From positions 630 to 64,629 of IMG/VR virus record IMGVR_UViG_3300048858_000017: 64,000 bases of DNA; one strand, written 5' to 3'. Under the pieces are notes generated by a model. The model was not told the origin of the DNA. It ran no database searches and worked only from the letters and a program-made list of their open reading frames with translations. The DNA is from a virus. Below are positions 4,561 through 57,355 of this stretch, in pieces (within the stretch, counting starts at the first letter, position 1; every line of letters begins with the position of its first letter). The position numbers were made by a program, and so were the translations under genes.

Positions 4561-4862
4561 TACAGCTTCCCTATCGACGGCGAGTTCAGAAGATCGCGGC
4601 CGGCGCGGCGGGCGGCCCTGATCCACGCCAATTCACGGCGGCACGGCCAGTTCTGGCTCTCGACGCGCTCGATCACCCTGACCCTCACGCCCCCTGCGCG
4701 AACGAAGTCCCCGACGGGCGTTCGCGCATAGCGATGCTGCTTCATGCGGCGATCGGTTGTCGAAGCGCCGGTGCGGCCGATGTAACGCACCCGGCCATCG
4801 GGGCCGATCAGGGCGTAAATCGATGATAGCCAGTCGCGGTCGCCGCGACGCCACACGCTCAT
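4560..4862 (-). CDS. Small GIY-YIG nuclease-domain protein
   Basis: SIYALIGPDGRVRYIGRT...RRMKQH motif. Confidence 0.7.
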   Translation of the reverse strand: MSVWRRGDRDWLSSIYALIGPDGRVRYIGRTGASTTDRRMKQHRYARTPVGDFVRAGGVRVRVIERVESQNWPCRRELAWIRAARRAGRDLLNSPSIGKL

Positions 4863-49323: not shown

Positions 49324-49865
49324 TAGTCCCGGTCCTCGGCCAGCCAGCCCTCGCGGCAATAGTCCGCATAGCGCCCGTCGAGCGGCCGGCAGTCTCCGCT
49401 GATGCCGCTGACATACGCCCCGGCCGACCCGCCGTCATCGTCAGCGCCGGTGCAGACCAGCCCGGCCCCGAGCAGCTTGCGCCACAGCGCCATCGGGATC
49501 AGGGGACCGCCGTCAACCGGGGCGAAGAACTCGACCTGCGCCGATCCGGCCTTCGCGATCTTGACGTTGCTGCTTCCGCTGGCGTCGGCGAACAGGCGCG
49601 GCTTCGCCAGCAGGTCGGCCGCCAGCATGGCAGCGACCTCCTCAACCGCCGCCGGCAGTTCATCAGCCGCGGGATCGGGGACCTTGCCCTCACACCACGG
49701 CAGGTCGAGCATCAGCCGGGTCGCCGACACGATGCCGCGGCCCTTTGCGTCGGGCTGCCGCAGCGCCCAGCCGGCCGAACGAGCAACATCGCCGGCGAGA
49801 TAGATATCGGCGTTCTCCACCGTGGTCAGCGCGTCGAACTCGCGCTCCCCGATCGTCACCTTCAT
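49323..49865 (-). CDS. Head-tail adaptor (DnaT-like family)
   Basis: TVENADIYL...ATRLM...KAGSAQVEF. Confidence 0.65.
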   Translation of the reverse strand: MKVTIGEREFDALTTVENADIYLAGDVARSAGWALRQPDAKGRGIVSATRLMLDLPWCEGKVPDPAADELPAAVEEVAAMLAADLLAKPRLFADASGSSNVKIAKAGSAQVEFFAPVDGGPLIPMALWRKLLGAGLVCTGADDDGGSAGAYVSGISGDCRPLDGRYADYCREGWLAEDRD

Positions 49866-51418
49866 CGACGTGCCCTCCGCTTGGCGATCTTCGCCATGTT
49901 CCGCCGCGACCGCAGCACCTTGGCGACCTGCCTCACATCGGCATTGCCCTCGACGCTGCCGGCGGGGTCCGGCTTGTTGCCGGGCTGGTTGCGGTCGGGG
50001 TTCAGAGACAGGTCCATGTCGTCCTGCCGCTCCGGCGGCCGGGTCAGGCCGAGCAGGTCATACACCTCCCCGACGGCGGGATCGTCGGGCATCATCGGCG
50101 CGCCGGCGGTCGCGAGGTCCCTGAGCGCGGTCAGGACCTGCTCGATGTCGCGGTCGCTGATTTCGTTGACGCCCATCTCGGGCCGGAGGTGGTCGGGCCA
50201 CCCGTTCAGATCGGCGATCGGGGCGATGACATCGCGGTCGAGGACCTCGACCAGATCGAGCAGGGTGGAGGTGACCGTCAGGTAGAACGTCCCGACCTTC
50301 GACCGCGCCAGCGCAAGCGACCCGGCCCCATCGGCGCCCAGCAGCAGATGCTCGACGCCGAGGACGCGGGCGAGTTCTTGGTTCATGCGGTTCACCGCGT
50401 TCGCCATCGAGTCGAAGCTGGTCGACTCCCCGTTCAGCAGCTCCAGCGCCCACTTCGGGGTCGACGACACGGTGGTGCCCTTGTCGGAGGTCGTGCCGCT
50501 GAACGTGTCCGAGGGCAGCATCAGCCCGGTTTTCTTGTTGCGGACGTGCTTGTCGATGAAGTCGCGCAGGGGCCGCAGCATTGCACCGCGACGGGCCTCA
50601 GCCTTCTTGCGCTCCTCCGACCCGGCAACGCCGGCGTCCTCGACCTCCTTCTTCATTTCGCCCAGGGGAGCCCGCGCGACCGGGATGCCGCGCAGGTCGG
50701 TCGTGAACCCGACCTCCTCCAACTCGAGGAAAAGGCGCAGGCGGTCGGCGGTCTCGGCGAGGTGGCGATAGAGACCCATGCCCTCCGGGCTGTCGGTCAG
50801 GGTGTCGTCGACCGCATAGACGATCTTGGCCCGGGGCAGGGTGGCGTCCTGCAGGCCGGGGATGCGCTGCATGACGGCGATCACGGTGCCCGACGGATCA
50901 CGAAGCCAGCGTGCGATTGAGCGCTGGGGCCGATGCTCGATATCGAGCAGCCCGATCGCGCCGTCCTCCCGCTTCTTCGCGGTCCACTCCATGATCGAGA
51001 AGCCCTGCATCCGGTACATGGCGATCTTGCGGATCACCGACGACCACGGCGTCGTCATGTCGAAGAGCATGTCGTAGACCTGGTCGGCATAGGCCTGCGC
51101 GATCGGCTCCTCGTTTCCGTTCAGGCCCTCGGGCGGGTTCACCGTCCAGACGGCGTTCGCGATCAGGTTCAGGAAGAGGCGGACGCCGGCGGCGATGATC
51201 GAGGTGTCGCGCACCATGCGGTCGAACTCGTCGAATCGCGCCTGCCCGATCAGGTTCAGCTTCCGCTCCGGCGCGCCTGCGCTGTAGCCCTGCAGGTCGG
51301 ACGCGCTGCTGACGCTGGACCCGATGGTCTGCGTCGAGCCGTCGGCCTTTTCGATGACGTCGTCTTCCTCGCCGAGGATGGCGTCGCCTACGCGCGCCCA
51401 GAAGGTCTTGTCGGCCAA
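49862..51418 (-). CDS. Portal protein (DUF935-like)
   Basis: 518 aa after terL; YRMQGFSIMEW; GMGLYR. Confidence 0.85.
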   Translation of the reverse strand: MADKTFWARVGDAILGEEDDVIEKADGSTQTIGSSVSSASDLQGYSAGAPERKLNLIGQARFDEFDRMVRDTSIIAAGVRLFLNLIANAVWTVNPPEGLNGNEEPIAQAYADQVYDMLFDMTTPWSSVIRKIAMYRMQGFSIMEWTAKKREDGAIGLLDIEHRPQRSIARWLRDPSGTVIAVMQRIPGLQDATLPRAKIVYAVDDTLTDSPEGMGLYRHLAETADRLRLFLELEEVGFTTDLRGIPVARAPLGEMKKEVEDAGVAGSEERKKAEARRGAMLRPLRDFIDKHVRNKKTGLMLPSDTFSGTTSDKGTTVSSTPKWALELLNGESTSFDSMANAVNRMNQELARVLGVEHLLLGADGAGSLALARSKVGTFYLTVTSTLLDLVEVLDRDVIAPIADLNGWPDHLRPEMGVNEISDRDIEQVLTALRDLATAGAPMMPDDPAVGEVYDLLGLTRPPERQDDMDLSLNPDRNQPGNKPDPAGSVEGNADVRQVAKVLRSRRNMAKIAKRRARR

Positions 51419-51482: not shown

Positions 51483-51559
51483 TGGTTGCGGGTGCCGGAT
51501 TCGAACCGGCGACCTAGAGGTTATGAGCCGCTCGCGCTACCAGACTGCGCCAACCCGCA
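51483..51559 (-). tRNA. tRNA with CAT anticodon (fMet-like scaffold, atypical identity elements)
   Basis: 77-nt cloverleaf, T-loop TTCGAAT, encoded CCA, anticodon loop CTCATAA. Confidence 0.93.
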
Positions 51560-51679
51560 GGGCCTGAATGGCAAACGGCCCGCCCCCGGTCAAGGGGACG
51601 GGCCGTACGGCCGGGGGAAGCGGGCTCCCCGGTCTACTTCCACCGCGTGCGGGTTGCCCCGGGCGCGGCAGCTATCCGG

Positions 51680-51934
51680 TCAGGTATTGCGCGCGGACGA
51701 GTAGCGCGGGACGCCGGCTTCGTGTCGGAGGCCCTGCTGGACATCGCGGGCTAGCGCGGTGCCGTCGATCGCGAGCGGGGTGTCGAAGCCATCGGCGGCG
51801 AGGCGCATCGGTTCGGGGGTGAACAGAGCGAAGGCGTCCCGCATGAAACCGCCGGCGAGACGGGCGAACGCGAGAATGGGCATCGCGAACAGCGACAGGA
51901 CGGTGAGGACGAGGGCGAAGCGGGAACGGCGCAT
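51680..51934 (-). CDS. Small protein with hydrophobic N-terminus
   Basis: SD GGAG; possible promoter TTGCCA upstream at about 51967-51973. Confidence 0.6.
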   Translation of the reverse strand: MRRSRFALVLTVLSLFAMPILAFARLAGGFMRDAFALFTPEPMRLAADGFDTPLAIDGTALARDVQQGLRHEAGVPRYSSARNT

Positions 51935-51997: not shown

Positions 51998-53659
51998 TCA
52001 AGACGCTCCCCAAGGGTCCTCCTCTAGCCCGGCGTCCGCCTGCATGTCGGACAGGCGCTGCTCGTCACTGCCCGGCTCGACGACCTCGGGGCCGGCGTTC
52101 ATCGGGGCATCGACGCCACCGACCAGTTCGCCGAAGGCGCGCGAGGAGGCGTCGACCTGGTCCTTGAACGACCCCGCCGGGAAGTTCCGCAGTTCCTCCC
52201 GGTAGGCAGCGTTCCAGTCGCCCCTGACGAGGAACACCTTGCCGGCCCCGACCATGGCGGCGAACGGCTCCGCGCGCGTCTCCTTGTCGCCGCTCTCCGG
52301 CGTGATCGAGAAGTTCAGCCCAGCCAGCAGGTCGGCCCACGTCCACTTCACCACCTTGCCGGTCGCGCCGGGGTCCTGCGGCAGGCTGTGCACCATCGAT
52401 GCCCGGCCATAGTCGGCGGCATCAGCGTGCGTGACCGAGTCGACCATCGCGTTCAGTTCGGTCGGGTTGGTGCGGCGACGATCGACGTGCAGGATGTAGA
52501 AGTTGCCGTTGACCCGCTTCATCAGCACCCGGACGGTGTAGGGGCTGTTCTTCCGCTTGGACCCGGCAATATCCCAGCCGCCGACGACCTTGCCACCGCC
52601 CGGGGCCGCCTCGACCGTCTCGATCAGGTCGACCTTGAACATGCCGCCCTCGCGCGGGGCCGGGCGCTGCTGGTACTGACCGGCCCAGACATAGTCGCCG
52701 GCCTTCTTCTGGCGCGCGATGGCCGTGGGCGGCATCCGCACCGGGTCCATCAGTTCGCCCTCGTAGGAGCGTGGATCGGTCCAGTCGCGCTTGCTGCCGG
52801 TGCCGTCGTCGACCTGCAGCGGCGTGACGCAACGGCGCTCCTCCTCGAACTCCATCGGGATGCAGAGGTGGACGAAGCCCAGATCGCGGGCGAGTAGCGC
52901 GCCGGTCAGATCGTCCTGGTGGATGCGCTGCATGACGATGACCATGGCCGAGGTCTCGGCATCGTTCGTGCGGTTCAGGCCGCCCTCGACGAACTTGCGG
53001 ACGGTGGCGGTGCGCTGCTCCTCGCTCTCGGCACCGTCGACGCTGTGCGGATCGTCGATAATCACGACGTCGCCGCGCTTACCCGTGATCGAGGCGAAGG
53101 CGACACCCTCGCGGAAGCCGAAGTCCTTGTTCTCGAAACTGGTCTCGCCGGCACGCTTCAGCTTGCCCTCGTCATCGAACACCTCGGGCCAGAGTTCGCG
53201 ATACCAGTCCGACTGGATCAGATCGCGGGTCTTGCGGGTGTCGCGGGTGACGTTCTTCAAATCGAAGGAGGACGACACGAACCGGCTGGCGGTGTTCCCG
53301 TGCGGCCCCCAGACCCATGCCTGCCACATCACCGAGACGATCATCGACTTCGACGACCCGGGGGGCACGTTGATGATCAGCCAGGGCGTCAGCTGCCCGC
53401 GGGTGATCGCCTCCAAGTGATCACACATCGCCTGCAGATGCCACGACCATTTGAGCGGGTTCTTCGGTTCGAGGACGTGCCACGCCTCCTTCACGAACCC
53501 GGCGAGCGTGCGGCAGCGGGCGCGGATCGCGTCGGCCTGTTCCCGGGTACGCTGCAGGTCGGACGCGGCGATATCGTTCCGAAGCTGGGCACGAAGCGCG
53601 CGCAGCGCCCCGCGGTCCAGCGTCGCGATATCCGGCAGTTCAGTCGTCAGCGCCGGCAT
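51998..53659 (-). CDS. terL: Terminase large subunit
   Basis: Walker A INVPPGSSKS, Walker B VVIIDDPH, nuclease GWDIA and DQVDA. Confidence 0.95.
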   Translation of the reverse strand: MPALTTELPDIATLDRGALRALRAQLRNDIAASDLQRTREQADAIRARCRTLAGFVKEAWHVLEPKNPLKWSWHLQAMCDHLEAITRGQLTPWLIINVPPGSSKSMIVSVMWQAWVWGPHGNTASRFVSSSFDLKNVTRDTRKTRDLIQSDWYRELWPEVFDDEGKLKRAGETSFENKDFGFREGVAFASITGKRGDVVIIDDPHSVDGAESEEQRTATVRKFVEGGLNRTNDAETSAMVIVMQRIHQDDLTGALLARDLGFVHLCIPMEFEEERRCVTPLQVDDGTGSKRDWTDPRSYEGELMDPVRMPPTAIARQKKAGDYVWAGQYQQRPAPREGGMFKVDLIETVEAAPGGGKVVGGWDIAGSKRKNSPYTVRVLMKRVNGNFYILHVDRRRTNPTELNAMVDSVTHADAADYGRASMVHSLPQDPGATGKVVKWTWADLLAGLNFSITPESGDKETRAEPFAAMVGAGKVFLVRGDWNAAYREELRNFPAGSFKDQVDASSRAFGELVGGVDAPMNAGPEVVEPGSDEQRLSDMQADAGLEEDPWGAS

Positions 53660-54273: not shown

Positions 54274-54711
54274 TTATGCGCGAAGCGCTTCGGTCGCCTC
54301 GGCAAGGACGGCGGGGGTCGGCGTCCAGAACAGCGGCGCGACAGTGCCGGCGCACGCGATGAAGGGGATCGGCCGGGGATTGCGGAGGACGAGGCCGCAG
54401 GGACCCATCCACCATGGACTGTCGCTTTCGCGCACGGCGTCGACGATCTCGACAGCACCGACGATACCGCCGCGCTGCATCTCCTCGAACGACGGGAACG
54501 GCACGTAGCGAGCATCGGTCTTGCCGACCGCCATCGTGATGAACGAGTGGGCGTGCCGATACTCTTCCTGCGTCAGCCCGGCCGAAGCGTGGATCAGCGT
54601 CAGACCGCGGTGACCGAGTCGGCGCGTCCGGTTCTCGATGTCCTTGCCGAGGTGGGTGATCGCGAACGCCCATGGCTGGCGGACGGAGAGGGCGAGGAGA
54701 GGCGCGGTCAT
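54274..54711 (-). CDS. ASCH-domain protein
   Basis: ALSVRQPWA...GKDIENR...LIHAS signature. Confidence 0.9.
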   Translation of the reverse strand: MTAPLLALSVRQPWAFAITHLGKDIENRTRRLGHRGLTLIHASAGLTQEEYRHAHSFITMAVGKTDARYVPFPSFEEMQRGGIVGAVEIVDAVRESDSPWWMGPCGLVLRNPRPIPFIACAGTVAPLFWTPTPAVLAEATEALRA

Positions 54712-54720
54712 GTCGCGGCC

Positions 54721-55386
54721 CTACTCCCCGCCCCGGGAGGTGACAATCTTGAACCGTTCCGCGATCCGGTCGGCCCCGGCCGTCAGCTGTGGCAGATCGG
54801 GACGGTCGGCCGGTGGGCGATCCCACGATGGCTCCCATGTGGCGCAGGCCTCGTCCTGCGGCACCCGGACCAGCCGGCCCGCGTCCAGGTCGGCGAGCGC
54901 GGCGACGAGGAGGCGGACCCCCATCGGGAACAGGCTGTCGCGCCAGAGGTCCGAGGCCGTGGTGCCCGGCCGAACATGCAACCAGTCGGCCGCCGCGATC
55001 GGGCCGCCGTCAACGCGCGGGCCGAGCCAGTAGATCGAGCCGCCGGCGATCGGGTCGCCCATGTGCACGGTCCACTTCACCGCGTCCCGGCCCCTGTGAC
55101 GGGGCAGCAGGGACGGGTGGTAGCCGATGCCCCCTAGCAGGGTGCGCGACAGGGCGCGGTCGCTGACGATGACGTGGGCGTGGGCGCAGACGATCAGGTC
55201 CAGCCCCTCGGGCAGATCATCGGCTGTCAGGCGGGCGGCGCTGGTCGGGATATCGAGGCGGCGGGCCTCCCAGTCGAGGCGGTCGCCGAGCGGGGCGAAC
55301 ACCGCGACCACATCGTGCCCGGCCTCCACGATCGCGCGCAGCGCCGCGGCCCCGAAACTCCGCTGCCCCACCAGTGCAATCCTCAT
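54721..55386 (-). CDS. 10-formyl-THF-dependent formyltransferase-fold protein (ALDH1L1 N-domain-like)
   Basis: RIALVGQ...GHDVVAVF; YHPSLLPRHRG; VDGGPI; LFPMG; ATGA-coupled to the GNAT gene. Confidence 0.9.
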   Translation of the reverse strand: MRIALVGQRSFGAAALRAIVEAGHDVVAVFAPLGDRLDWEARRLDIPTSAARLTADDLPEGLDLIVCAHAHVIVSDRALSRTLLGGIGYHPSLLPRHRGRDAVKWTVHMGDPIAGGSIYWLGPRVDGGPIAAADWLHVRPGTTASDLWRDSLFPMGVRLLVAALADLDAGRLVRVPQDEACATWEPSWDRPPADRPDLPQLTAGADRIAERFKIVTSRGGE

Positions 55387-56582
55387 GCCGGTGCCTTCTC
55401 CGCTGCCTTGCGGGCGGCCCACGCCTCCCCGCGATATTTAAACCCTTGGACGGCCCTGAAATGCCCCCCGTACCCTGCAACCCCCGTCTCGAAATTGCCC
55501 TCGATCAAGCGGGCGCTGTCCGTGGTGCGGGCCGACTTTTTGAGCGACTTCACCGAGGTGGCGCGCCGGTTGCCATGCAGGACCGCGCTGACCTGCTCCC
55601 ACCGGGGGTCACGGCGCAACGCGGCGCAGAGGCCCGGGTGGGAGGTGTGGAAGAACCCGCACTTGACCCGGTCGCCGAACTGCCCCTGACCGCTGACCTC
55701 GCGCTCCATGACCCAGTTCAGGAACTTCATGCCGACGCCCGCCCCCTGCCACTCCGGCATGATGACCATGCGGCAGCCGCGGACGCCGCCGGTGTTGAGG
55801 CGGGGCGCGATCCCGAGGTGGGCCACCGGCTCCCCGTCGACGAACGCGACGAAGTAGCGGCAGGCCACCATGCGGGGCAGCTTCAGATAGTGATGCGGCT
55901 CAAAGAGGTCCCAGTAGGAGCCGTCGACCTGCCGAATTTCAAGTTCGATAGGAGGGCGTCGTCGAAGACGCCTCCCTGCGGCATCCCGCTCGAACACGCC
56001 CGTAGCCGTGTCAAAAATCCAGTCCGGTTCCAGCCAGTCGAGGACGTCGTAATGGCAGGACAGCAGCACGGCCTTCCCGCTGGTGCGCCGCCACGCCTTC
56101 TGGAACGCGAGCGCCCCGATCTTGGCGATCTGGCGGTCGACGACGGACGTGAACTCGTCGATGACCACTGCGGCCGGCTCCTCAGCGACGATGCGGGCCA
56201 GTTCGGCGCGGAACTTCTCGCCGTTCGACAGGACCCCATAGGGGCGCAGCCACGACGGGACCGACCCCAGCCCGACCGCTGACAGCGCGGCGGTGACGGC
56301 GTTGAAGTCGCCCCCGGGCGCGATGGCGTCCACGATCGGGGCGTCGTCGGGCCACTCCCCACCCGTCCACAGCGCGCCTTCCCCGAGGATCGACTTGCCG
56401 AGCGATGTCTTGCCAGAGCCGGAGGGTCCGACGACGACCCCGACCTTCCAGCCGTCGTCATCGATGTCAAGGTCGGCGTCCAGATCGAACGCCTGCCCCG
56501 ACTCGGCGTTGAACAGGCTCTGCACCCGGGCAGCGCGATAGCTGGCGTAGTGCGGGCAACGGTTACGGATTTCGATATGCAT
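55383..56582 (-). CDS. ABC-type ATPase fused to Mom-like GNAT acyltransferase
   Basis: Walker A GPSGSGKT, signature LSNGE, Walker B VVIDEF; FEPHHYL and RMVIMPEWQGAGVG (GNAT motif A). Confidence 0.88.
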   Translation of the reverse strand: MHIEIRNRCPHYASYRAARVQSLFNAESGQAFDLDADLDIDDDGWKVGVVVGPSGSGKTSLGKSILGEGALWTGGEWPDDAPIVDAIAPGGDFNAVTAALSAVGLGSVPSWLRPYGVLSNGEKFRAELARIVAEEPAAVVIDEFTSVVDRQIAKIGALAFQKAWRRTSGKAVLLSCHYDVLDWLEPDWIFDTATGVFERDAAGRRLRRRPPIELEIRQVDGSYWDLFEPHHYLKLPRMVACRYFVAFVDGEPVAHLGIAPRLNTGGVRGCRMVIMPEWQGAGVGMKFLNWVMEREVSGQGQFGDRVKCGFFHTSHPGLCAALRRDPRWEQVSAVLHGNRRATSVKSLKKSARTTDSARLIEGNFETGVAGYGGHFRAVQGFKYRGEAWAARKAAEKAPA

Positions 56583-56616
56583 GCGGCCTCCGGGTCGGCG
56601 ACATACCCCAGATGCG

Positions 56617-56651
56617 AAAGACCCGCCAGCCCGGGGCGGGGCTGGCGGGTC
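56617..56651 (-). terminator. Perfect 12-bp hairpin (attenuator/terminator-like) upstream of the GNAT gene
   Basis: GACCCGCCAGCC/GGCTGGCGGGTC followed by TTT on the minus strand. Confidence 0.5.
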
Positions 56652-56713
56652 CATCAGGGAGGTGCCTGACGTCGGGGGGGTGACGCCGGGCGACTCGTGT
56701 CATAGCACCGGGG

Positions 56714-57355
56714 TCAGACGACCACCACCTTGACGTTGTCGGCCCCATAGGTCTGGCGCAGGGCGTTGAAGCAGGCCTCCTGTGCCGCCTCGTCGGCGCA
56801 GCGGACGATGACGGCGAACTGGTCGACATGCTCATAGGTGCTGTCGGCATCGGTGCCCTGCCCGCGGGCCTTTGCCGGGGCCTCCCCTTCCTCGGGGGTG
56901 CCGATCAGCTGCTCGATCGCGTCGGCACCGAACCCGAGCGGGGCCATGTCGAAGTCGACGCCGGCGAGCGCGTCCAGTTCCCCAGTCAGGATGCCGATAT
57001 CCCACCCGGCGTTCTCGGCGATGCGGTTGTCGGCGAGCGCATAGGCCCGGCGCTCCTCCTCGGTCCAGCCGGTGCAGTCGATCACCGGCATCGTGCCGTC
57101 GGGGATCATGTGGCCGCCGCGCTCCTTGCCGGGGGCCATGTAGATGCGCTCGCCCGCGGCGTAGATCAGCTGCGCGGCGCGCTGCCTGCCATGCCCGGCG
57201 CGGATCAGTTCGTCGGCGAGAGCAGGGGCGGTCCAGCCGAAGCGGCGGATCGAAGTAGCGATCTCCTCGACCTGCGCGTCGCTATGCGTCCGGGCATTGC
57301 GGGGGTCGGGGACCAGGTCGTCGACCTTGCGGAACTGAATGGTGGGCTTCGGCAT
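56714..57355 (-). CDS. ParB/Srx-like N-terminal domain protein
   Basis: DLVPDPRNARTHSDAQVEEIATSIRRFGW...AGHGR...YALADNRIAE. Confidence 0.88.
   Translation of the reverse strand: MPKPTIQFRKVDDLVPDPRNARTHSDAQVEEIATSIRRFGWTAPALADELIRAGHGRQRAAQLIYAAGERIYMAPGKERGGHMIPDGTMPVIDCTGWTEEERRAYALADNRIAENAGWDIGILTGELDALAGVDFDMAPLGFGADAIEQLIGTPEEGEAPAKARGQGTDADSTYEHVDQFAVIVRCADEAAQEACFNALRQTYGADNVKVVVV

Follow-up and report, generated by a model that had tools for sequence, protein, structure and literature searches.

What does the only tRNA gene of a complete virus genome contribute to infection? The gene, with a CAT anticodon, lies at positions 51483-51559 of the window, as we call the whole 64-kb stretch of DNA analyzed here; the record it comes from is a complete 67.6-kb virus genome with direct terminal repeats, and this is the sole tRNA of that record. 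Bacterial tRNAs with this anticodon are initiators, elongator Met tRNAs or Ile2 tRNAs, and a first-pass annotation of the window had placed the gene on an initiator scaffold while proposing an elongator Met, Ile2 or dual-use function. The sequence comparisons described below suggest that it is probably a phage initiator-type Met tRNA, which would supplement initiation late in infection.

Gene neighborhood

The tRNA gene is flanked by the portal gene on one side and, on the other, by an 84-aa ORF located after the large terminase gene, all co-directional. The features of this locus are as follows.

51483..51559, minus strand: tRNA(CAU) on an initiator-type scaffold with U1-A72, C11:G24, C29xU41 and a templated CCA (ARAGORN, Rfam, sequence, class comparison)
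49862..51418, minus strand: portal gene with a TTG start, directly downstream of the tRNA (Pfam Portal_Mu, 4.7e-19; start-region alignment)
51680..51934, minus strand: 84-aa ORF upstream of the tRNA, homologue of R6L gp99 (BLASTP, 5e-08)
51998..53659, minus strand: large terminase (Pfam Terminase_6C, 1.7e-14)
51575..51606, minus strand: 13-bp GC-rich hairpin directly 5′ of the tRNA (fold; alignment with L019)
51565..51593, minus strand: weak promoter-like TTGACC-N17-CATTCA, ending 5 nt before U1 (read by eye from the sequence)

In L019, the closest of the relatives by terminase (83% identity), the 13-bp hairpin is retained with G.U compensation; it would be a processing element or resemble a terminator of the small ORF upstream. 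The promoter-like sequence overlaps the loop and 3′ arm of this hairpin, and its L019 version reads TTGACC-N17-CATTCC. Since a sigma-70 consensus scan found no promoter near the tRNA gene, a sigma-70 promoter was rejected; the hairpin/TTGACC region (51565-51606) could be a small-ORF terminator, a tRNA promoter, or both. The portal gene starts with TTG in the window (51418) and with GTG in L019 (~9100), with a GGAG-type ribosome-binding site before each.

No tyrosine or serine integrase is encoded in the complete genome, and a role of the tRNA as attP or integration companion was rejected for this reason. In Sphingobium herbicidovorans pMSHV (L030:300-676), the native initiator tRNA gene is followed by an integrase gene within 200 nt, which marks the initiator tRNA as an integration site in Sphingomonadales.

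Structure and identity of the tRNA

ARAGORN placed a tRNA-Met(cat) gene on the minus strand at 51483-51559, and Rfam RF00005 matched it with 60.9 bits (E 9.8e-11; gathering score 29). The acceptor stem consists of U1-A72, G2-C71, C3-G70, G4-C69, G5-C68, G6-C67, and U7-A66. The D stem reads GCGC/GCGC, hence C11:G24 and G12:C23, with a D loop of 9 nt. In the anticodon stem, AGCGG/CCUCU, the pairs A27-U43, G28-C42, G30-C40, and G31-C39 surround a C29xU41 mismatch; all other stems are perfect. The anticodon loop is CUCAUAA, the discriminator is A73, the CCA end is templated, and further initiator marks are U8-G9 and the variable loop AGGUC. The three deviations listed in the first-pass annotation, U1-A72, C11:G24, and C29xU41, are thus all present on the minus-strand cloverleaf.

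The tRNA shares ~80% identity with the initiators of E. coli (metY) and Sphingobium, the latter being a single S. herbicidovorans chromid copy that we found via PLSDB and used as the Sphingomonadales reference. Its identity to elongator Met and Ile2 tRNAs, for which the comparison sequences were from E. coli only, is 60.5% and 66.7%, respectively. BLAST against PLSDB (plasmids and chromids) matched initiator genes only, at four places per enterobacterial chromosome, which is the number of named E. coli initiator genes. Together, the ~80% initiator identity and the initiator-only matches identify the tRNA as an initiator derivative and bear out the scaffold proposed for it earlier.

Several features expected of tRNA-fMet are present: a CAU anticodon with A73; no strong 1:72 pair, where a mismatch or a rare weak U:A is expected and the window has U1-A72; the formyltransferase (Fmt) determinants G2:C71 and C3:G70 (PMC5389676, PMC7949028); and G12:C23, which is given as fMet-specific (PMC1635315). 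The templated CCA is also more frequent in initiators than in other common tRNA classes (PMC5143459). Two features depart from the canonical definition, namely C11:G24 in place of A11:U24 and CxU at 29:41 in place of full R29-G30-G31/Y39-C40-Y41 pairing, of which G30-C40 and G31-C39 are present; we therefore file the tRNA as a variant rather than a plain member. The resulting CGG,CCU stem is not among the bacterial initiator stems tabulated in PMC5143459.

An exact 49-nt scan of metagenome contigs found no independent copy of the tRNA, and a relaxed scan matched only the source contig of another phage tRNA, L012. The two single-base deviations, U1 and C29xU41, may be assembly errors.

Frequency of each deviation

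To judge how unusual each deviation is, we used published class tables of 9917 bacterial CAU tRNAs (PMC5143459). In these tables, U:A at 1:72 occurs in 63 of 4438 initiators (1.4%), 2 of 2762 Met tRNAs, and 1 of 2717 Ile2 tRNAs, that is, in 3 of 5479 elongators together, so that U1:A72 points to an initiator (PMC5143459). Silva et al. 2006 judged U:A at this position as "probably not affecting formylation" (PMC1635315). Viral contigs have U1:A72 more often than bacteria, namely in 15 of 120 distinct tRNAs.

C11:G24 is, by these counts, the truly unusual feature of the tRNA. C:G at 11:24 is found in only 3 of 4438 bacterial initiators, as against 2759 of 2762 Met and 2706 of 2717 Ile2 tRNAs, while 4430 of the 4438 initiators have A:U (PMC5143459). 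The conservation of A11:U24 in bacterial initiators has been put at 100% (Silva 2006, PMC1635315) or 99.8% (Ardell and Hou 2016, PMC5143459).

To our knowledge, a C29xU41 mismatch has never been tested in any initiator. It violates the R29:Y41 rule, and nearest-neighbor energies predict that the anticodon stem of the tRNA forms with a probability of 2-6%, compared with 90-98% in canonical initiators. Pair 29:41 is A-U in all alphaproteobacterial initiators (PMC5389676), including the Sphingobium initiator whose sequence we fetched, and a single substitution separates the CxU stem from alphaproteobacterial AGG/CCU, as it does from the CGG/CCG of phage R6L. E. coli lives with a 1st-AU, 1st-CG, or 1st-UA initiator as its sole initiator, and only G30-C40 is essential (PMC5389676). 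The baseline that the first-pass annotation called established, C1:A72, A11-U24, and three G-C anticodon-stem pairs, therefore turns out to be E. coli-centric, given U1:A72 in 63 of 4438 initiators and A29-U41 as the norm in all alphaproteobacteria. We infer that two lineage-specific changes, U1-A72 and C29xU41, hit the two initiator positions that are most tolerant of change.

Phage tRNAs with C11:G24

We scanned IMG/VR contigs with the pattern GGCGCAG-N3-GGTAGCGC-N6-CTCATAACC and obtained C11:G24 matches in 60 contigs; by sequence, this feature is common to at least that many. The A11:U24 counterpart pattern matched at least 119 IMG/VR contigs, many of them at contig ends, and these matches are therefore probably host genes beside prophages. 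A narrower C11:G24 pattern was present in 12 viral contigs versus 1 of 185,579 bacterial species genomes. The contigs with C11:G24 tRNAs range from 38 to 71% GC, and the tRNA is mostly alone in the stretch fetched. In 14 of the 15 multi-tRNA loci, which are parts of contigs, the class member is the only CAU tRNA.

We parsed 43 distinct C11:G24 tRNAs, bearing in mind that the scan pattern itself fixed C39 and C40. Of these, 35 have a mismatch at 1:72 and the remaining 8 an A-U or U-A pair, never G-C, C-G, or G-U; the other acceptor pairs are formed in 95-100%. G30-C40 is found in 43 of 43 (with C40 fixed by the pattern), and pairs 27:43 to 29:41 covary freely. Across the class, 94.6% of cells are paired, and the observed covariation values were reached in 0 of 500 shuffles. 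Anticodon-stem mismatches occur in 9 of the 43 C11:G24 tRNAs versus 4 of 77 A11:U24 tRNAs from viral contigs (Fisher p 0.013, relatedness ignored).

The tRNA of the window has the features that define this class, that is, initiator acceptor and T arms, a GCGC/GCGC D stem, a 9-nt loop, a weak 1:72 position, and G30-C40/G31-C39. On these comparisons, it is a genuine phage tRNA, under structural constraint and derived from an initiator, and belongs to what appears as a largely phage-specific subclass, in which C11:G24 replaces the near-universal bacterial A11:U24. Our literature search did not find a paper describing such a class of phage initiator-type tRNAs.

Some CAU tRNAs met in these searches have peculiarities of their own. 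U1-A72 occurs together with C11:G24 in the viral tRNA(CAT) genes of L006, L008, L013, L015, and L017, which are identical, and of L009; all have an apparent extra base in the acceptor 3′ strand, UCUCCGCA opposite UGCGGGA, giving a bulge or a shifted stem. The best PLSDB match is a plasmid-borne tRNA(CAT) of Bosea sp. RAC05 (pBSY19_1, L031:301-376) with A1xA72, C11:G24, a 10-nt D loop, and the stem CGAGC/GCUCG, in which G30-C40 is kept and 31:39 is C-G; it resembles the phage class, yet resides on a bacterial replicon. In L010 (12680-12837), two tRNA(CAT) genes adjoin each other in one viral contig, the first with A11:U24, C1xC72, and an anticodon stem without G31 and the second with C11:G24, A1xC72, and AGA/UCU at 29-31/39-41.

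tRNAs of related phages

The packaging and head genes of the virus, whose GC content is 67.9%, share ~70% DNA identity with those of the Erythrobacter phages vB_EliS_R6L and ZS04, a relatedness that would point to an Erythrobacter-type host. R6L and ZS04 each have one tRNA(CAT) between the terminase and portal genes, with C1xA72, C11:G24, and an A28xA42 mismatch. The two unannotated genes are as follows.

L002:5951-6027 (KY006853.1, 61555-61631): tRNA-Met(CAT) of R6L (Rfam, 60.1 bits)
L003:5953-6029: tRNA-Met(CAT) of ZS04 (Rfam, 60.1 bits)

The R6L paper reported no tRNAs by tRNAscan-SE 1.3.1 and used their absence in its discussion of host range (PMC5463345). The tRNA-Met(CAT) described here corrects the published statement that R6L is a tRNA-less phage. 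In R6L, the tRNA is on the opposite side of the gp99 homologue gene compared with the window. Compensatory changes separate the two tRNAs, with G4-C69, U7-A66, and C51-G63 in the window and A4-U69, G7-C66, and G51-C63 in R6L.

Among the other relatives, L019 has a tRNA with C1xA72, C11:G24, and A29xC41; that of L021 has U1xC72 and a perfect anticodon stem; and that of L023 combines U1-A72 with A11:U24. The L023 tRNA (4753-4829) is also initiator-type, and C33 replaces the near-universal U33 in its anticodon loop, CCCAUAA. In L020 and L022, the 6-kb neighborhood of the terminase gene is devoid of tRNAs, so the tRNA gene would be dispensable. The most similar tRNA (92%) is that of L012, an unrelated 48.6-kb phage, with C1xA72 and A28xC42. 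Apart from position 1, all its differences from the tRNA of the window fall in the upper anticodon stem, with 5 of 6 positions changed there versus 1 of 68 elsewhere. The classical C1xA72 mismatch is thus found in the tRNAs of R6L, ZS04, L019, and L012, and four related phage tRNAs have four different stem mismatches: C29xU41 in the window, A28xC42 in L012, A28xA42 in R6L/ZS04, and A29xC41 in L019. From the sequences, this diversity would fit relaxed constraint, transient compensatory turnover, and selection for escape from a stem-reading toxin alike.

AUA decoding and the neighboring enzyme genes

Upstream of the terminase gene lies a cassette of genes, and for the products of the first three listed here the first-pass annotation had proposed the tRNA as a candidate substrate.

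54274-54711: ASCH-like, weak (E 0.015 to ASC-1 ASCH structures)
54721-55422, minus strand: formyltransferase (233 aa, N domain only)
55383-56654, minus strand: ABC-type ATPase and GNAT fusion (Pfam, PDB matches, PHROG 11143, function unknown)
56714-57355: ParB-like (PHROG)

That the tRNA is a lysidine-modified, AUA-reading Ile2, or a substrate of the ABC-ATPase/GNAT, formyltransferase, and ASCH gene products, is in our estimation highly improbable. The CAU anticodon, C11:G24, and the position of the formyltransferase and ABC-ATPase/GNAT genes 3-5 kb upstream on the same strand speak for these two ideas. Ile2 tRNAs typically have G1:C72, often C4-G69/C5-G68, and in E. coli U12:A23 (PMC5143459, PMC1635315). 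The tRNA of the window lacks G1:C72 and an Ile2-type acceptor stem and has instead U1:A72, C3-G70, G4:C69, G5:C68, and G12:C23. There is also little demand for AUA decoding, AUA accounting for 30 of ~18,000 codons (1.67 per 1000; 4% of Ile codons). We rejected an Ile2 identity, and with it the earlier Ile2 proposal, on the acceptor stem, G12:C23, U1:A72, and the rarity of AUA.

The enzymes do not have the domain content of Fmt or TmcA. Fmt combines Formyl_trans_N with a C-terminal tRNA-binding domain in ~315 aa, whereas the 233-aa phage protein has the N domain only; its best PDB matches are FDH N-domains (3e-23, versus 6e-14 for Fmt), and it appears closest to the hydrolase domain of 10-formyl-THF dehydrogenase. 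TmcA consists of a RecD-like helicase, GNAT_acetyltr_2, and tRNA_bind_2; the ATPase-GNAT protein has only ABC_tran/AAA and Acetyltransf_1/7 domains in Pfam, its PDB matches are ABC ATPases, and no TmcA family or structure matched it in Pfam or PDB. TmcA and Fmt identities were rejected on these grounds. As for the genes themselves, the formyltransferase and ATPase-GNAT named in the first-pass annotation are indeed present, while the ASCH call is weak, with E 0.015 and no Pfam match for ASCH at 54274-54711.

The tRNA and the cassette do not co-occur elsewhere. The complete tRNA-bearing genomes R6L, G001, and G002 are without the ABC-ATPase/GNAT and formyltransferase genes, and phiE255, Gordonia phage Ligma, and Nonlabens P12024S, in which the cassette lies beside terminase or ParB, are without the tRNA; two cassette-bearing phages gave Rfam tRNA matches of 45.4 and 24.2 bits that ARAGORN did not call. 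We therefore regard the two as independent features, and the substrate proposal fails on co-occurrence, on a GNAT protein that is not TmcA, and on a formyltransferase without the Fmt C-domain. In Ligma (L204:1-4172), the ParB-like, ABC-ATPase/GNAT, and formyltransferase-position genes directly precede terminase in the same order as in the window (54721-57355); the same order before terminase in an actinophage suggests that the cassette travels with the packaging module.

Comparison with known initiator tRNAs

The E. coli metY and Sphingobium (L030) initiators share with the tRNA of the window the CAU anticodon, G2:C71, C3:G70, G4:C69, A73, G12:C23, the 9-nt D loop, G30-C40, G31-C39, and the templated CCA. 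They differ in having C1xA72 rather than U1-A72, A11:U24 rather than C11:G24, and, at 29:41, G-C (E. coli) or A-U (alphaproteobacteria) rather than CxU. Natural bacterial initiators with U1:A72 keep A11:U24 and a fully paired R29-G30-G31 (PMC5143459, PMC1635315), unlike the tRNA of the window. Laboratory-made 1:72 base-pair mutants of the E. coli initiator, as cited in PMC6393288 and PMC7949028, likewise have a closed 1:72 pair on an initiator body, but in an A11:U24, three-G-C background; according to these citing papers, the mutants of Varshney et al. 1991 and Seong and RajBhandary 1987 both initiate and elongate.

The consequences of C11:G24 can be approached by analogy with an engineered tRNA. 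Katoh and Suga 2023 (PMC10450175) pointed out that position 11:24 alone distinguishes the D arm of the E. coli initiator from that of tRNA-Pro1, and that the motif recognized by EF-P is a 9-nt D loop on a 4-bp, GC-rich stem. In the same study, tRNA-iniG1/C11/G24 increased full-length product 14-fold with EF-P and ~6-fold without it. Like the tRNA of the window, this construct is an initiator body with C11:G24, its D arm thereby becoming that of tRNA-Pro1, and the D arm of the window is one D-loop base away from it (U16 for C16); it differs in being man-made, pre-charged with a non-natural amino acid, and used in vitro with no involvement of formylation. The EF-P-type D arm may thus serve as a lead to function.

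The E. coli initiator with C11/G24 initiates in vitro (PMC10450175), and elongators given C1xA72 and the three G-C pairs initiate in E. coli (PMC7949028). By analogy with these systems, A11:U24 would in principle be dispensable for initiation. It is a secondary Fmt determinant that assists formylation (PMC7949028), and with C11:G24 in its place formylation may therefore be reduced.

Discussion

In the reading that we consider probable, a phage initiator-type Met tRNA, the tRNA would be transcribed together with the late packaging/head operon or as part of it, either using its own weak promoter or being processed from a long transcript. Its CCA end being already templated, it would be charged by host MetRS via the CAU anticodon and A73 and formylated by host Fmt via the weak U1-A72, G2:C71, C3:G70, and A73, and it would enter the ribosomal P site through G30-C40 and G31-C39. 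The host initiator pool would thereby be enlarged while phage structural proteins are made. Points against initiation include the closed U1-A72 pair, which should improve EF-Tu binding, C11:G24, which is, in the bacterial tables, the elongator state, and the mismatched anticodon stem with its low predicted stability. The rules applied here are largely E. coli-based and may not transfer to the inferred host.

The main rival, which we hold to be unlikely though not negligible, is a tRNA that serves both initiation and elongation. The weaker Fmt determinants (C11:G24) and the closed U1-A72 would leave the charged pool partly unformylated; a still tentative extension of this idea is that IF2 would direct the formylated fraction to initiation and EF-Tu would carry the unformylated fraction to internal AUG codons, much as animal mitochondria manage with one tRNA-Met. 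When formylation is slow, even a 1x72-mismatched initiator binds EF-Tu and acts in elongation, and with a Watson-Crick pair at 1:72 the initiator is a less good substrate for Fmt and becomes able to elongate (PMC6393288). The title of Seong and RajBhandary 1987, cited in the same paper, reports that a single base change lets an initiator act as an elongator in vitro. Dual use would also fit class members being the only CAU tRNA in 14 of 15 multi-tRNA loci and an internal AUG frequency of 18.5 per 1000 codons, but these loci are parts of contigs, so further Met tRNAs may lie outside them, and the host already supplies elongator Met tRNA. The single base change of the 1987 study was reportedly C1 to U1. 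Among bacterial U1:A72 tRNAs, initiators outnumber elongators 63 to 3, and a true 1:72 mismatch, which disfavors EF-Tu, is kept in 35 of 43 class members. Elongator Met tRNAs have C11:G24, as does the tRNA of the window, and a strong 1:72 pair (G:C or G.U in 96%), which it lacks. The earlier proposal of an elongator Met or dual-use tRNA thus survives in its dual-use part, at the low probability given above, while U1:A72 in only 2 of 2762 Met tRNAs counts against a plain elongator.

Rather less probable is a spare initiator whose altered anticodon and D stems block a host VapC-type nuclease or AtaT-type acetyltransferase, a reading that is compatible with initiator function and does not exclude it. 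The initiator tRNA is a cleavage target of enteric and leptospiral VapCs, and evasion of anticodon nucleases has been proposed for phage tRNAs (van den Berg et al. 2023, PMC10264068); like those tRNAs, that of the window is a phage copy of a toxin-targeted species. The four different stem mismatches in four related phages, the concentration of window/L012 differences in the upper stem (5/6 versus 1/68), and the excess of stem mismatches in the C11:G24 class (9/43 versus 4/77, p 0.013 with relatedness ignored) would be expected from such selection. The published signature of evasion, however, is a mutated anticodon loop (PMC10264068), whereas here the host-type loop CUCAUAA and A38/C39 site are unaltered and only the anticodon and D stems differ. 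Pairs 27:43 to 29:41 are moreover the least constrained in all initiators, so that fast neutral turnover with transient mismatches also explains the stem data. We give still less credence to a decaying or near-neutral passenger, an initiator copy from a host or another phage whose deviations are the damage of drift. An anticodon stem predicted to form at only 2-6%, the absence of the tRNA near terminase in L020 and L022, its different position relative to the small ORF in R6L, and the negative tRNAscan-SE 1.3.1 result for R6L (PMC5463345) would agree with decay. Against it stand a normal tRNA score (60.9 bits), the perfect remaining stems, the compensatory changes between the window and R6L tRNAs, the strong covariation across the C11:G24 class, and the 5′ flank conserved with L019.

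Phage Met and initiator tRNAs are common, and the tRNA of the window is probably ordinary in function. A more speculative view, which we advance only tentatively, is that the C11:G24 initiator-like tRNAs are a phage-evolved functional class rather than drifted copies. C11:G24 could give a GC-rich, tRNA-Pro-type D arm that is read by EF-P, with a faster first peptide bond and less initiator drop-off, in effect a "super-initiator"; another possibility is that C11:G24 makes Fmt recognition weaker and thereby allows a single tRNA to both initiate and elongate. Among the R6L-like phages, repeated, independent upper-stem mismatches could have been selected for escape from initiator-targeting host toxins. 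In either case, a sizeable set of phage initiator-type tRNAs is systematically without A11:U24, yet these tRNAs keep the weak 1:72 position and G30-C40, the features that define initiation. The class would be a natural counterpart of the engineered C11/G24 initiator with better in vitro performance and offers a natural test set for the role of A11:U24, be it in Fmt recognition or in EF-P recognition.
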